Below the pieces are notes generated by a model. The model had not been told where the DNA came from and did not search any database. It saw nothing but the letters and a program-made list of their open reading frames with translations. Below are positions 60,370 through 64,000 of a stretch of 64,000 nt of DNA, one piece after another. The stretch spans positions 3,360,001 to 3,424,000 of the forward strand of contig OZ251459.1 of assembly GCA_965242525.1 (NCBI GenBank). Reading direction: 5' to 3'. Each line of letters starts with the position of its first letter. Within the stretch, counting starts at the first letter, position 1. A program made the translations under genes and the position numbers. Source of the stretch: an uncultured Candidatus Binatia bacterium (GTDB taxonomy: Bacteria > Desulfobacterota > Binatia > UBA9968 > JAJDTQ01).

Positions 60370-61356
60370 CTACTCGATCTTCTCGTTGGTTTCTGTCTCT
60401 GCCTGGCTTGGATCCTTACGTTTGGAAGCAACAGATTTTTCGAGTTTTTCTTCCAGGTCGGCCATTCTCTCCTGTAAGGTTTCAACCTCTCTTTTTAGTC
60501 CAATAACACGCTCGGCCGTCGTTGCCTGTTTTGCTGTCATGTCACCTGTGATATTGCTGACATTCAGCACGATAGTAGCGATACCCACTGCTACAGTCAC
60601 GGATATAGTAACTGCACCACCAATGGTGTAGTTCCGCGAACGCTTAGCGCTCCTTGCTGCTTGTTCAGCGCTTTCCCTTGATTCACGTAGTGCCCTGGGA
60701 ATGGAGCTTCGGATTTCAGGTTGCTTAAGATAAGTATCAAGTGTTTTTCTATTTTTGTCCTTCGGAAAAGGTGTGTATATGCCCTGGTAGGATTCTGTTG
60801 AACGATTGATGTTTACCCAATGGTCGTTAGGAGAAATTTTCGTAAACTCTAGCCATATCAATTTTTCTTCGTAGCAGAATTTGTATTTGTTGGTAGTGAG
60901 ATTATGCAACGGAATCAGAATGCGACCTTTGAACCCCGGGTCAACAATGGGTCCCGTACCGAGAAGCAATCCCCGATGGACATTTGTAATTGTGAGATTG
61001 AACCTTACCGCCATATAGTCCGGAAGGCGAAACTTTTCTCTGGTCGTGACGAAGGCAATCGAATTCGGTTCCAAAACAAAAGAACCTTTTTTACTCAGGT
61101 CAACGGACTGCTTCTTCCCGTCATCCTCCCAATAGATACAATCTGCCCCCACGCTTGCCTCGTATGAGGCCGGTTTGAGCTTCTCCGAATCGAAAGGATA
61201 GATCATCCCCGTAGTACGGACATAGTCGTAGATGTCGGCGGAATTGAGCAACGCCGCCGGAATATTCGGGAACGGATCACGCGACTTGTACTCGTTGAAC
61301 CGAGCCCCCGCGTCATCGTCATCGCGTAGGGGATACCGTTCTTGCTGAGTCGTCAT
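60370..61356 (-). CDS. dCTP-deaminase/dUTPase-fold protein with degenerate active site and C-terminal TM helix plus coiled coil
   Basis: LLNSADI..LKPASYE..LEPNSIAFVTTREKFRLP..IVDPGFKGRILIPLHN; hydrophobic TIGGAVTISVTVAVGIATIVLNV. Confidence 0.8.
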   Translation of the reverse strand: MTTQQERYPLRDDDDAGARFNEYKSRDPFPNIPAALLNSADIYDYVRTTGMIYPFDSEKLKPASYEASVGADCIYWEDDGKKQSVDLSKKGSFVLEPNSIAFVTTREKFRLPDYMAVRFNLTITNVHRGLLLGTGPIVDPGFKGRILIPLHNLTTNKYKFCYEEKLIWLEFTKISPNDHWVNINRSTESYQGIYTPFPKDKNRKTLDTYLKQPEIRSSIPRALRESRESAEQAARSAKRSRNYTIGGAVTISVTVAVGIATIVLNVSNITGDMTAKQATTAERVIGLKREVETLQERMADLEEKLEKSVASKRKDPSQAETETNEKIE

Positions 61357-61360
61357 GAGG

Positions 61361-62410
61361 CTACCGCGTGGCTACCGCGTGCGCGATGTGCTCTTGTCTT
61401 GGATACAAGGACTTGGACCCCGGTCCGACCCCCACCCAATCCACGGATACGCCGATGGACTGCTCGACCGCTTTGACGAACTCCTCCGCCTTGTCCGTGA
61501 CTCGTTCCTCTTCCCGGCAGCGCCAATCCACGTAATCGAGATGGTTGAGGACCACCCGGCTAGGCGAGTTCGCCTGGATCGCCTGCAGCACGACCTCGGC
61601 GTCGAACCTTGCGACTCGACGGATTCGTCGGGTCACACTGGTCTTCTCCACTATGCGCCCATCGGCACCCGACTCCCGGGCCACGGTGTTCCAGTCCATT
61701 TCCCGCGGAAGCGGGCCGGAGTTTCCCGACACCCGTATGGGGAAGGCCCGGAGCACCAGGATCACATCGTCCACGTCGAGAGGACTCAGGCCGACCTCCG
61801 AAAGGAACCCTGCGGCCGTGGTGTCACGTGACGTCACGTGTGGATAATGATCCGAATGAAGCAGGGACAAACCAAAGCCCTGGGTCCCTTCGACGATCAC
61901 CCGGCGGTTCTGCTGCAAGCAACGCCGCGCCATTTCCCTGACAGGCTGGAGGTAGGGTTGCAACCGTGGGTCGTCCGCGGCCCTCTTCGACCGGCCTTGG
62001 CGCTCTATGCGCCGTATGACCGCGCCGCCGGTACCGGTCAGGGTGGAGCCGATGAGAGATCCCAACCCTGCCTTCCGCTCCCTTTCCCTGTCTTCCTCGG
62101 TAATCACGAAGGCGTTCGGGTCCACGCTCACTCGGTCACATGCGAGGGAGGGGTTGCTCAGTTCCTCCAGGAAGACCTCCACGTCGATGTAGGAGCCGGC
62201 CCCTATGGCGCAGTGGATTCCGGGGATGAGGCAGGCGGTGGGCAGGCAGCGGAAGACGTGGCGTCGCCCGTCTTCGACCACCGTGTGGCCGGAGTTGGGG
62301 CCTCCGGTTCGGATGGCAACGGCCGCTTTTAGCTGTCCGGCCAGGAAGTGGGCGACCTTGCCCTTCCCCTCCGAGCCGTACTGACCGCCGACCACGATGG
62401 AAACCGGCAT
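61361..62410 (-). CDS. Adenylosuccinate-synthetase homologue with PurZ/PurZ0-type signatures
   Basis: VGGQYGSEGKGK (Ser replaces the PurA Asp), GGPNSGHT, IGSTLTG, EGTQG, YPHVTSRD, RAFPIRVSGNSGPL, SVTRRIRRV, NHLD; short 349-aa form. Confidence 0.85.
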   Translation of the reverse strand: MPVSIVVGGQYGSEGKGKVAHFLAGQLKAAVAIRTGGPNSGHTVVEDGRRHVFRCLPTACLIPGIHCAIGAGSYIDVEVFLEELSNPSLACDRVSVDPNAFVITEEDRERERKAGLGSLIGSTLTGTGGAVIRRIERQGRSKRAADDPRLQPYLQPVREMARRCLQQNRRVIVEGTQGFGLSLLHSDHYPHVTSRDTTAAGFLSEVGLSPLDVDDVILVLRAFPIRVSGNSGPLPREMDWNTVARESGADGRIVEKTSVTRRIRRVARFDAEVVLQAIQANSPSRVVLNHLDYVDWRCREEERVTDKAEEFVKAVEQSIGVSVDWVGVGPGSKSLYPRQEHIAHAVATR

Positions 62411-62420
62411 GGCAGGACCT

Positions 62421-64000
62421 TTACACGAAGTTCAGTCGATGCTCAAGGCGTTCCAGCACTTCGGCACAGAGGTCGTCCTTGGTGCGGTCGTTTGCCGCCC
62501 GGACGTGCGCGAGTTCGCCGAGCATGGCGACGCCCCGTTCCGAGAGGTGTCGGAGGGACTGCTCCCGACCGGAGCCCTTTGCGGACGCCTTCGCGGGCGA
62601 AGGCCCGTCCTGCCTTCCATCCTCACGGGTCAGGTGCACGTGGACGAAGGCCGGACCGTAGGTCTCGACCAGGAAGGCATGGTCTTCGGGGAAGCGGAGT
62701 CCGTCGATGACGACGCTGCCCTCCGAGGGCAAACGCTCCTTCAACCGGCGGCAGAGCCAGCGCTGTCCGGGGGCCTCGTGGATCTGCGCCCCCAGGTCCT
62801 GGAGCGCCTTTTGGCTTACGGGACGCCCGTCCTTCCGCAGTTCGTCTTCGAGCACTTGGCTGAACCTTCCGTAGGCGTAGCCCCGGCTTTCCAGGAAACG
62901 GGCAACGGTGGTCTTGCCGGCGCCAGTCTCGCCGCTCAAACCCGCCACGCGCCGGTCCAGCCAGTCCCCGGGCTGGCGGGCAAGGTCCGGCACGATGAGG
63001 TATTCTTCCTCGTCGTTGCCCAGGGCCTCGAACTTTCCCGTCCAGAAGAACAGGCCCACCAGGGCGGACGTGATGGCGTCTAGTTCGTCGTGGGACAGCT
63101 TGTCCGAAGCGATGGGTCCGCGGACCCCGAAATCGAGCAGGGCCCGGGTCAGGTGCTCCAGGCCCTTCTTCTTCCGGGGGATCCCCAGGATGTCCTGGGC
63201 GGCGCCGGGGTAGCTTTCGATGACCGGGATGCCGAGCTTCCGAAAGTGCGTCGCCAGACGGATGCCCCGGGCGGTGAGGCCCTGCATGTTCAGGATCAGC
63301 GTGGGATAGACGTGGACGCCCCGCGCCCGGAGCAGTCGCTCGCATTCCCGGGTGATGCCGAACTCCTCCCTGGCCGGGTCGTCGTCGGTGGTGCGGGTGC
63401 GCCCGTACGGCAGGGACAGGGGGGAGTCGATGGACACCATGTGCGGCCGGGCGCAGACGGTCTCGCTGATGAGGTCCAGGTCGCTGCCGATGCGCTGCGT
63501 CAGGGCGTAGTCGTCCGTGAGCAGGCACCACCCGGAGGCCCGGGCCTCCGACCCGGTCAGGTCGATGCCCACCACGCGCAGCGGCCGTTCGCGCACGGCC
63601 CCGGTCAACTGCCCGTAGGTGGTGCGGGGACCCTTCGCGCCCCGGTAGGGCGGCACGTAGATCCGATGCCCGGCCTCGGCCTTTCGGCTGGCGGCCCATG
63701 CCAGCCTCCGGGGTTTGGCCAGGAACCGGGGCGGCGGCGTGCGGAGGACTTCGGCCACCCCGTCCGCGGCCTTGCGCCGGATGGCCTCGTCCAGGATCGC
63801 CTGCATGCCCACGATGTCCGCATGGTTGTATTCGATGAGGGTCTTGCAGGCCGCGTCGTCTCCCATCTGGTACTGGTACCAGAGCACCGGGGCCATGGCC
63901 CCGTCCACGTCGGCCACATGGCTTCGCCCCTCCACGCGGATGGACCGCTCGATGGCCTTCTGGTTGCCCACCAACCCCACGGACCGGCCGAAGAACCGCA
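62421..64000 (-). CDS. Multidomain protein: YprB/RNase_H_2-like exonuclease + DUF429-like nuclease + P-loop nucleotide kinase; 5' end outside window
   Basis: Frame is open to the window edge (RFFGRSVGLVGNQKAIE..LIEYNHAD). VVGIDLTGSE, SIDSPLSLP, IESYPG, HDELDAI; GLSGETGAGKTT and VIDGLRFPED kinase motifs. Confidence 0.78.
   Translation of the reverse strand, partial: RFFGRSVGLVGNQKAIERSIRVEGRSHVADVDGAMAPVLWYQYQMGDDAACKTLIEYNHADIVGMQAILDEAIRRKAADGVAEVLRTPPPRFLAKPRRLAWAASRKAEAGHRIYVPPYRGAKGPRTTYGQLTGAVRERPLRVVGIDLTGSEARASGWCLLTDDYALTQRIGSDLDLISETVCARPHMVSIDSPLSLPYGRTRTTDDDPAREEFGITRECERLLRARGVHVYPTLILNMQGLTARGIRLATHFRKLGIPVIESYPGAAQDILGIPRKKKGLEHLTRALLDFGVRGPIASDKLSHDELDAITSALVGLFFWTGKFEALGNDEEEYLIVPDLARQPGDWLDRRVAGLSGETGAGKTTVARFLESRGYAYGRFSQVLEDELRKDGRPVSQKALQDLGAQIHEAPGQRWLCRRLKERLPSEGSVVIDGLRFPEDHAFLVETYGPAFVHVHLTREDGRQDGPSPAKASAKGSGREQSLRHLSERGVAMLGELAHVRAANDRTKDDLCAEVLERLEHRLNFV

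Follow-up and report, generated by a model that had tools for sequence, protein, structure and literature searches.

An accessory bacterial operon linking a PurZ0-like synthetase, a nuclease-kinase fusion and a predicted membrane-anchored protein of the dUTPase fold

Three co-oriented genes and their products

The stretch analysed here, hereafter the window, is a 64,000-nucleotide segment of contig OZ251459.1 from an uncultured Candidatus Binatia bacterium (G000:C1:3360001-3424000), and was taken together with the next 20 kb, which are covered by stretch L001. Near its end lie three co-oriented minus-strand open reading frames (ORFs) spanning positions 60370-64511, which we call g1, g2 and g3 in their reading order (Table 1). 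An earlier reading of the window's letters, referred to below as the original prediction, had described them as an operon of a nuclease-kinase fusion, a PurZ0-like synthetase and an inactive deaminase-fold membrane protein, with a candidate role in defence or signalling through modified purines. The gene spacing given there is confirmed, with 10 bp between g1 and g2 and 4 bp between g2 and g3, and the suggested extension of the contig past position 64000 completes g1 at 64511, where the N-terminus read from its GTG start aligns with those of homologues. The GC content is 0.48-0.60 across 56-62 kb of the window, against about 0.70 around it.

Table 1. Features of the operon and of its immediate surroundings, in window positions
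Feature	Position	Strand	Description
g1	62421-64511 (L001 2421-4511)	-	696 amino acids (aa), GTG start; 511 nt lie beyond the window
g1 exonuclease, PolB/YprB-type (residues ~86-243)	63783..64000 in the window, rest 64001-64256	-	Motifs FLDIETTGLS, VTFNG..FD, EYNHAD
g1 DUF429 (residues ~315-502)	63006..63569	-	PF04250, 25.8 bits; RNase H-like, RuvC-clade fold
g1 kinase (residues ~517-696)	62424..62963	-	Intact Walker A GxxxxGKTT; DGLRFPED
g2	61361-62410	-	349 aa; short enzyme of the adenylosuccinate synthetase family, PurZ0-like type
g2 Ser13 codon in P-loop GQYGSEGKGK	62372..62374	-	Aligned with catalytic Asp13 of PurA
g3	60370-61356	-	328 aa; predicted membrane-anchored protein, dCTP-deaminase/dUTPase fold
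g3 DCD/dUTPase-fold domain (residues ~37-176)	60829..61248	-	Invariant RFNL, GTGPxVDPGF, IPLHNLT, IWxEFTK
g3 transmembrane helix (residues ~248-266)	60559..60615	-	Best 19-aa Kyte-Doolittle window 2.16; basic KRSRN before it
g3 C-terminal tail (~62 residues)	60373..60558	-	Heptad-like charged helix
HEC-07 candidate defence protein	58490..60142	+	PADLOC HEC-07, 580 bits, E 1.4e-174; convergent with g3
D12-class N6-adenine DNA methyltransferase	56858..58018	+	PF02086, 66.6 bits; PADLOC MTase_II, 362.6 bits
Direct repeat, ~190 bp	55248-55436 and 58233-58407		Families D2-D4, 84-91% identity, spacing ~2975-2985 bp

The product of g2 belongs to the adenylosuccinate synthetase family (Pfam Adenylsucc_synt PF00709, 172 bits) and stays below every NCBIfam cut-off, reaching 286 of the 368 bits required by PRK04293, 233.9 of the 300 required by the PurZ model NF038379 and 200.6 of the 395.55 required by TIGR00184. 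In a HMMER comparison with solved structures it scored 194 bits against PurA of P. horikoshii, 158 against PurZ0 of Gordonia phage Archimedes (7VF6), 132 and 113 against PurZ of phages phiVC8 and S-2L, respectively, and about 100 bits against the long PurAs. PurZ0 is said to have been defined by Tong et al. in 2023, and two features of g2 argue for the PurZ0-like assignment made in the original prediction. The aspartate that is catalytic in PurA (Asp13) is a serine in g2, the P-loop reading GAQWGDEGKGK in the genome's own PurA and GGQYGSEGKGK in g2. Among the 120 closest homologues the same position is occupied by serine in 108 and glycine in 11 and never by aspartate, the motif being missing from one, and the g2 copies of the 80 loci described below agree with these database homologues. 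Serine in place of Asp13 is described as the criterion for PurZ (PMC12884076; bioRxiv 2025.10.22.683976). The second feature, the PIRVxGNSG loop, is common to g2 and PurZ0 and contains the two-residue insertion of the latter (PIRVSGNSG, against TTRVG--SG in PurA), without the longer insertion of PurZ. The insertion after Arg-Val has been tied to a preference for deoxyribose that disfavours ribonucleotides (PMC8342488).

A third motif, NHxD, keeps its aspartate in g2, PurA and PurZ0 and has asparagine in PurZ. From this retained aspartate we infer that GTP is probably the phosphate donor of g2. Of the phage enzymes, PurZ0 is reported to prefer ATP and PurZ to prefer GTP (PMC12884076), and PurZ is elsewhere described as using ATP/dATP (PMC8342488; bioRxiv 2025.10.22.683976). 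When 82 rows without archaeal PurA were placed in a quick maximum-likelihood tree, with the genome's long PurA as the only outgroup, the g2 family came out as one clade (Shimodaira-Hasegawa-like approximate likelihood ratio test, SH-aLRT, 84); its branching order relative to the other two groups, PurZ0 (100) and PurZ plus a Bacillus phage enzyme (98), is not resolved. Variants of g2 that are fused to a kinase fall outside this clade, and the tree as a whole cuts across taxonomy. Matches to g2 were present in 225 phage records, all at less than 60% identity and mostly from phages of Arthrobacter, Vibrio, Microbacterium and Acinetobacter; the annotations listed name synthetases that are PurA-like or of PurZ type. 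That g2 might be the housekeeping PurA was considered and ruled out by Ser13, by the TIGR00184 and PRK04293 scores below cut-off and by a separate, canonical purA at C1:1808535, which scores 607.9 bits to PF00709.

The product of g3 joins a domain of the dCTP deaminase (DCD)/dUTPase fold to a predicted membrane anchor. The Pfam DCD model (PF22769) matches it with 42.7 bits, over the cut-off of 27, and TIGR02274 with 51.2 bits, under the cut-off of 92.8; 2052 relatives were found at E<=0.001 among 4735 candidates scored. A structural model of the domain, calculated from 117 sequences (predicted local distance difference test, pLDDT, 89.2; predicted template modelling score, pTM, 0.84), gave as best Foldseek matches the bifunctional dCTP deaminase-dUTPases from M. 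tuberculosis and B. halodurans, along with 9ln0 and 8y1w, two archaeal dUTPases, with E values of about 1e-11 and target TM-scores of up to 0.83. At the site of the catalytic glutamate (E138 in E. coli and E145 in M. jannaschii, numbered from the PDB titles), the genome's Dcd reads GAIRLEIAN and g3 reads GRILIPLHN, and since Pro149, invariant in the 117 sequences, replaces this glutamate, g3 cannot be a deaminase. To this extent, and in its membrane helix, the inactive deaminase-fold membrane protein of the original prediction is recovered. The word inactive, on the other hand, claims too much, as the nearest folds include active dUTPases and the aspartate of VDPGF (D139; motif III, I/V-D-x-G-[YWF]-x-G), which we take to be the catalytic aspartate of the pyrophosphatase reaction, is invariant in all 117 sequences. 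By analogy with the DutZ partner of phage PurZ0, g3 may be a pyrophosphatase of deoxynucleoside triphosphates (dNTPs).

Two further elements set g3 apart from ordinary members of the fold. The RSS phosphate-binding motif of DCD/dUTPases (motif II) is replaced by (K/T)IT, and the C-terminus consists of a membrane helix and a coiled coil instead of the P-loop-like arm of dUTPases. A hydrophobic window (Kyte-Doolittle at least 1.6) is found in 111 of the 115 homologues with the HNLT motif, at a median position of 253, and about 71 residues follow this window. The tail that follows is helical and charge-rich across aligned relatives and variable in sequence, and by the positive-inside rule it would lie outside the cytoplasm. 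A full-length model from a 20-row alignment (pLDDT 59.2) contains one long helix, residues 218-310, of low confidence. A predicted complex of g2 with the g3 head scored 0.00 against a mark of 0.32 in a run without controls, and counts as evidence neither way.

The fusion of nuclease and kinase parts in a single protein, claimed for g1 in the original prediction, is borne out by Pfam (RNase_H_2 PF13482, DUF429 PF04250 and weak AAA_18/AAA_17 matches to the kinase) and by profile searches, which together place a helix-hairpin-helix-like segment at the N-terminus and, after it, a DEDD 3'-5' exonuclease, then DUF429 with its RuvC-like fold and finally a P-loop nucleotide kinase. Within an alignment of 29 homologues, residues E97, T99, G100, N145 and D150 of the exonuclease are invariant and D95 is conserved in at least 90%, and the profile of this alignment, compared with solved structures, links the exonuclease to MrfB (E 2.7e-7) and to a deoxydinucleotide nuclease (diDNase). 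PF13482 has been placed among the 3'-5' exonucleases, and DUF429 in the RuvC/YqgF clade of RNase H-like endonucleases, where it is predicted to be active (PMC3985635). In g1 the latter domain carries the acidic motifs GIDLTG, SIDSPLSLP, ESYPGAAQD and SHDELDAITS, with D316, D361, E431, D439, H473, D474, E475 and D477 invariant; it returned no solved-structure match in the same 29-homologue profile search. The kinase matched the AdkA-like/UPF0200 protein SSO1041 (E 5e-13) and dephospho-CoA kinase (2.5e-8) and, in PADLOC, weakly the kinase part of the defence 'dCTPase' model (18.9 bits). Relatives of g1 at E<=1e-10 numbered 2984 among 8000 candidates scored, the best 120 being mostly about 690 aa long and named by their source only as 'DUF429 domain-containing' or 'YprB-like'. 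All four motif patterns searched for are present in 88 of the 120 closest database homologues and three of them in 29 more. Judged by these counts, fusions of the g1 type are common.

Conservation, recurring partners and patchy distribution

Conservation of the operon was followed in contigs from one genome per species, using an alignment of 20 g3 relatives; of 188 pattern matches 86 were confirmed, and 80 loci were kept, in which the presence of each gene was scored by tblastn with the window's proteins. A g2 gene is found in 78 of the 80, missing from L039 and from the short contig L064, and the DUF429 part of g1 in 65. The g2 and g3 genes are adjacent on the same strand in 58 loci, and full collinearity is preserved in 44. 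With g2 accompanying g3 in 78 loci and g1 in 65, the arrangement is far beyond chance. The loci are spread over 14 named phyla, among them Pseudomonadota (43 loci), Actinomycetota (7), Bacillota (5) and Bacteroidota (5). The sequence comparisons firmly define an invariant core of a PurZ0-like ligase and a dUTPase-superfamily protein, to which kinases are always, and nucleases usually, attached; the kinase is part of g1, joined to g2 in one protein, or encoded by an additional deoxynucleoside kinase gene.

Several further genes recur beside this core, none of which is present in the window's genome. A deoxynucleoside kinase gene (dNK, PF01712) directly follows g3 in 29 of the 80 loci. A protein of about 250 aa that starts with MQNRY(F/V)GD(V/A)GDF(G/A)KY accompanies the g2-g3 pair in 16 loci (L015, L017, L018, L025, L038, L040, L043, L046, L048, L052, L056, L057, L061 and L070, and more weakly L026 and L062), including four that are without g1; it matches no Pfam family, and an ESM Atlas search returned unnamed clusters only. 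A distinct variant, seen in five loci (L045, L047, L049, L051 and L059), has a fusion of a kinase of the same kind as that of g1 to g2 (about 550 aa), an M78/IrrE-like peptidase and a DUF7002 protein, with a g3 relative within a few kb. To this set L049 adds a SIR2_2 protein, and L059 a metallo-beta-lactamase-fold (Apyc1-like) protein, a histidine phosphatase and an ATP-grasp enzyme of the 'Ter operon' type. In L051 an extra PurB-type lyase adjoins g3, and the same genome has a second PurB-like copy with 32% identity. At one of the loci with the 250-aa protein, that of Bradyrhizobium ivorense (L043, 4074-7182), g2 and g3 are separated by this protein, a 488-aa second DCD-fold protein and an RlmJ-type methyltransferase (199 bits), a three-gene insert that is possibly a separate or add-on module.

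Within its own lineage the operon is rare. With g3 as query and a threshold of E<=1e-20, a match was obtained for 2 of the 27 further species searched in the genus and for 0 of 33 genomes searched from the other genera of the order. The trio is thus both co-conserved and patchy. The genome that carries the operon has housekeeping purA, dcd, dut and purB besides it; a suspected DCD-PurB fusion (G000:C1:2457000-2458900, L007) proved to be adjacent, ordinary dut and purB genes. Among 50,697 phage records, 5 matched g3, none over more than 41% of its length, and among 72,556 plasmid records there were 3 with g3 relatives, all from Sinorhizobium. On the conjugative plasmid pMl2 of Sinorhizobium medicae (L113, 7178-9939), a g2-g3 pair without g1, named 'adenylosuccinate synthetase' and 'hypothetical protein' in RefSeq, lies near an AbiEii toxin gene and the antitoxin gene of a toxin-antitoxin pair, and beside it stands a divergent 199-aa gene with a weak match to YfbR-like 5'-deoxynucleotidases. 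In three related genomes the trio occupies the same chromosomal site, with neighbours that vary. At the level of sequence, we take the trio to be a single accessory operon that has spread by horizontal transfer.

The original prediction had further proposed a check for enrichment in defence islands, and the evidence on this point is equivocal. In the window, the operon is neighboured by HEC-07 and a D12 methyltransferase. A PADLOC scan of 173 immediate neighbours from 44 loci, which returned families and not counts per protein, gave matches to type I restriction-modification (R-M), mads, type IIG, PglX, DRT reverse transcriptase and pAgo with SIR2, as well as AbiEi, SoFic and PDC-M30/M41/S41. 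The control consisted of 83 ORFs taken from 18 randomly chosen stretches of the window's genome, and here too models of type IIG, type II and Ppl were matched. With no per-protein counts returned, we do not claim an enrichment of defence genes; the scan is not clearly above control and can neither show nor exclude one. Of the families of PADLOC-DB v2.0.0 (2023), 0 match g2 or g3, and g1 has weak partial matches only, to PDC-S44 and to the kinase part of dCTPase. The published account of DefensePredictor names, among the domains it predicts for defence, a dUTPase and a predicted nucleotide kinase, and the passages concerned mention neither adenylosuccinate synthetase nor DUF429 (PMC13092281).

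A possible pathway to non-canonical deoxypurines and its alternatives

No named system was recognised in the original prediction, and this still holds: the 2023 release of PADLOC has no model for g2 or g3, and we found no published description of the trio, nor of any bacterial operon in which a PurA/PurZ-like enzyme goes with a membrane protein of DCD fold, in a literature search that covered articles without their supplementary files. The closest known counterpart is the PurZ0/DutZ module of phages whose genomes contain 2-aminoadenine (Z). Like the phage PurZ0-DutZ/DmtZ module, the operon has a short PurA-family synthetase with serine at the Asp13 position and the PIRVxGNSG loop, and a protein of the dUTPase superfamily accompanies the synthetase (in 78 of the 80 loci here); all 98 of 98 PurZ0-encoding phage genomes are reported to carry a Dut-like gene as well (PMC12884076). 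Nucleotide kinases and PurB are needed in the phage pathway and would be needed in that proposed for the operon. Unlike the phage module, the operon is chromosomal and bacterial, extends over 14 named phyla, adds the exonuclease/DUF429/kinase fusion, and is without DmtZ, MazZ, DatZ or a DpoZ-type polymerase, although no search was aimed at the polymerase or at the DatZ type. Its g3 differs from the Dut partner of phage PurZ0 in belonging to the DCD branch, in the loss of the RSS motif and in its membrane anchor, and its g2 differs from phage PurZ in forming a clade of its own and in scoring below the NCBIfam PurZ cut-off.

Other known enzymes and systems resemble the operon in part. The short archaeal PurA (P. 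horikoshii, PRK04293) is the best match of g2 both in solved structures and in NCBIfam and has a similar length of about 340 aa; it has, however, aspartate in GDEGKG where g2 has serine, and g2 remains below its cut-off of 368 and is a second copy beside a bacterial purA. The combination of a DCD-fold protein with a P-loop kinase acting on the dNTP pool recalls the defence dCTP deaminase (kinase-DCD fusion) and dGTPase systems, from which the operon differs in that g3 has neither a PADLOC match nor the catalytic glutamate, the kinase resides on another protein and a synthetase is the core partner. CBASS, Pycsar and type II Thoeris place a nucleotide-making enzyme beside a membrane protein with a nucleotide-binding part. 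The operon similarly sets a nucleotide enzyme beside a protein of nucleotide-binding fold with a membrane segment, but it has no cyclase, TIR, CD-NTase, SAVED, CARF or cNMP sensor, and its enzyme is a ligase of purine biosynthesis. Finally, DUF429 of g1 matches the single-gene DUF429 candidate PDC-S44 of PADLOC (27 bits, E 5.9e-7); this match is weak, is confined to model positions 7-142 of 259, and concerns one of four fusion parts encoded within an operon.

On balance, we tentatively favour, at less than even odds, a reading in which the operon turns the deoxypurine pool towards a non-canonical nucleotide and works in this way against phages. In such a pathway, deoxyguanosine monophosphate (dGMP) could be supplied by the nuclease domains of g1, degrading DNA to mononucleotides, or by g3, hydrolysing dGTP as the Dut-like partner of PurZ0 would. 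g2 would then join aspartate and (d)GMP to N6-succino-2-amino-(deoxy)adenylate, probably with GTP as donor; the cell's PurB, or the dedicated copy in one variant, would remove fumarate to give (d)ZMP; and the g1 kinase, together with the extra dNK of many relatives, would phosphorylate substrates or products upward. As a net effect, dG nucleotides would become scarcer and Z-type or succinylated purine nucleotides more abundant, and the latter could corrupt fast-replicating DNA, chiefly that of the phage. The operon is read as a pathway by analogy with the phages that encode PurZ0 and a Dut-like enzyme and with the steps performed by host PurB and GMP kinase. The Dut-like enzyme of PurZ0 phages is reported to yield dAMP and dGMP from the triphosphates (PMC12884076), and the steps from the PurZ product to dZTP have been assigned to host PurB and GMP kinase (bioRxiv 2025.10.22.683976). 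That Z chemistry can stop replication is suggested by the phage Z-cluster, which on its own was toxic to E. coli while Z entered its DNA, at 3.9-12.1% of adenine positions (PMC8342488).

A number of observations weigh against this pathway and should be kept in view. The g2 protein misses the PurZ cut-off (233.9 against 300 bits) and is placed by HMMER nearer to archaeal PurA than to PurZ0 (194 against 158 bits), and because the tree holds no archaeal PurA, the substrate of g2 could still be inosine monophosphate (IMP) or another compound. The loss of the RSS motif makes a pyrophosphatase activity of g3 doubtful. An extra PurB occurs at just one of the 80 loci (L051), and in the window neither a DatZ-type dATP-removing enzyme nor a Z-selective polymerase was reported, with no search aimed at them. 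A corruption of the nucleotide pool leaves the membrane helix and the outer coiled coil of g3 unexplained, and since a constant synthesis of Z nucleotides should be toxic, the operon would need some switch. The neighbour scan, too, offers little contrast, with 66 families in the control against 92 and 69 in two neighbour sets, the control genome being itself defence-rich and of 70% GC.

The membrane anchor is better accounted for by the model of the original prediction, in which the nucleotide made by g1 and g2 is a message that is bound by a trimeric g3 head, whereupon g3 damages the membrane and the infection is aborted. We regard this as unlikely on present evidence, though as the likeliest of the alternatives. 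The pocket of g3, which has lost the deaminase glutamate and RSS and yet is strongly conserved in sequence, would fit a binding site, the TM helix is retained in 111 of 115 homologues, and g2 and g3 are the invariant core in 78 of 80 loci; effectors at the membrane are frequent in systems based on nucleotide signals, among them CBASS, Pycsar and Thoeris. Against this, g3 has a single helix per chain, near its C-terminus, which is unlike the two or more helices of known pore or membrane effectors. The product of a PurA-type enzyme is moreover a central purine metabolite, which would serve poorly as a private signal because host PurB should consume it, the many kinases and the lyase of relatives suggest a pathway instead of a single messenger, and a Pfam scan of the operon's proteins found no sensor domain of a known signalling family. 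The same chemistry as in the favoured pathway could also act by depletion only, g3 and the g1 nucleases making dGMP and g2 locking it irreversibly in the succinyl adduct, so that phage replication starves, much as under the defence dGTPases and dCTP deaminases, and the adduct plays no part of its own. Nucleotide depletion is, according to what Tal et al. are said to have described in 2022, an established defence strategy, and PADLOC provides a weak link (18.9 bits) between the g1 kinase and the kinase portion of its dCTP-deaminase defence model. Apart from the weakness of that link, such a scheme leaves unexplained the kinases that push nucleotides upward and the PurB-like lyase of L051, and a single hydrolase would be cheaper; we consider it distinctly improbable.

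Outside of defence, the operon might be an accessory pathway carried on mobile islands, for purine salvage or stress, for modification of the cell's own nucleic acids or for a nucleoside-type metabolite, a possibility that we rate as rather improbable. All its parts come from families of nucleotide metabolism, the flanking genes of the window are housekeeping, the neighbour scan is not clearly above control, and L059 adds a biosynthetic-type 'Ter operon' ATP-grasp enzyme, a histidine phosphatase and a metallo-beta-lactamase-fold protein. Such a role fits poorly with the very patchy occurrence in the genus (2 of 27), with a gene tree that disagrees with taxonomy, with two nuclease domains fused to a kinase, with neighbours such as HEC-07, SIR2, pAgo, AbiE, DRT and R-M genes, and with a genome that already has housekeeping purA, dcd, dut and purB. 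That the genes are instead the remnant of a Z-genome module of a phage or prophage, serving a mobile element, is scarcely credible: PurZ0 and PurZ are the nearest phage relatives of g2, and a Dut-superfamily partner is typical of PurZ0 phages, but there are no flanking phage genes, the g2 family forms a clade apart from the phage groups, g3 is nearly absent from phage records (5 of 50,697, none beyond 41% of its length) and from plasmid records (3 of 72,556), and three related genomes share one chromosomal location for the operon.

PurZ-type synthetases are described, in the passages of PMC12884076 that treat their distribution, as found only in phages and in four archaeal sequences. The present data add a large bacterial family with the PurZ hallmark, in a conserved operon with nucleases, kinases and a dUTPase-fold protein that is predicted to be membrane-bound. 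If Z-type nucleotides are made by these proteins, the assumed restriction of Z chemistry to phages would have to change, modified purines would become the basis of a new class of immune or conflict mechanisms, and the finding would bear on the origin of PurZ. In its widest form, which we think has only a modest chance of being right, the proposal is that bacteria make Z or N6-succino-2-aminopurine deoxynucleotides as an inducible antiviral weapon, that the PurZ0-Dut pair of phages shares ancestry with the operon, having been captured or donated, and that g3 couples events at the envelope to nucleotide chemistry. A practical consequence is that the serine hallmark alone may lead to the mis-calling of 'Z genomes' in metagenomes.

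Genomic surroundings of the operon in the window

As the original prediction had stated, phage structural genes are absent, with none on either flank of the operon. One flank leads to msrA and an EamA transporter gene, and the other to a deacetylase-like gene, an FAD oxidoreductase, a SnoaL protein, a carboxylase subunit and znuABC-like transporter genes, all of housekeeping character. No tRNA genes were found in 45-64 kb, and a scan for promoters and terminators returned nothing on the strand of the operon. The first copy of the direct repeat begins in the 3' end of msrA, and the pair of copies brackets a 3-kb cassette of a Sel1-repeat protein, a small lipoprotein-like ORF and the D12 methyltransferase, with HEC-07 following the second copy. 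In the closest relative, a genome of about 90% nucleotide identity (L008), HEC-07 is missing and g3 is directly followed by the methyltransferase, and in another (L009) HEC-07, the methyltransferase and the small lipoprotein-like gene are all missing. These differences in HEC-07 and methyltransferase content point to an insertion hot spot at the site of the repeat and cassette. Three tandem 108-bp units of 74-76% identity within the Sel1-repeat gene (55607-56033) are the Sel1 repeats themselves.

Farther from the operon, a low-GC type I R-M set lies at window positions 158-5789 (REase_I, 153 bits; MTase_I, 317 bits, with a fused specificity part) and is followed by an AriAB-like (PARIS-type) gene (179 bits). 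A second low-GC island at 18223-23033 (GC about 0.50) has four co-oriented genes with weak PADLOC matches to SspD, to PbeA/DinG-type helicases, to MzaB and to the PLD nuclease DrmC, and may form another defence system. A repeat of about 110 nt is dispersed over C1, occurring at L001 8640-10800 (window positions ~68640-70800) and at more than 50 other places; it is 80-90% identical to L008 1484-1598, and is the source of the repetitive 'PAGACPHHSRRSLP...' ORFs in L001 8640-10800.

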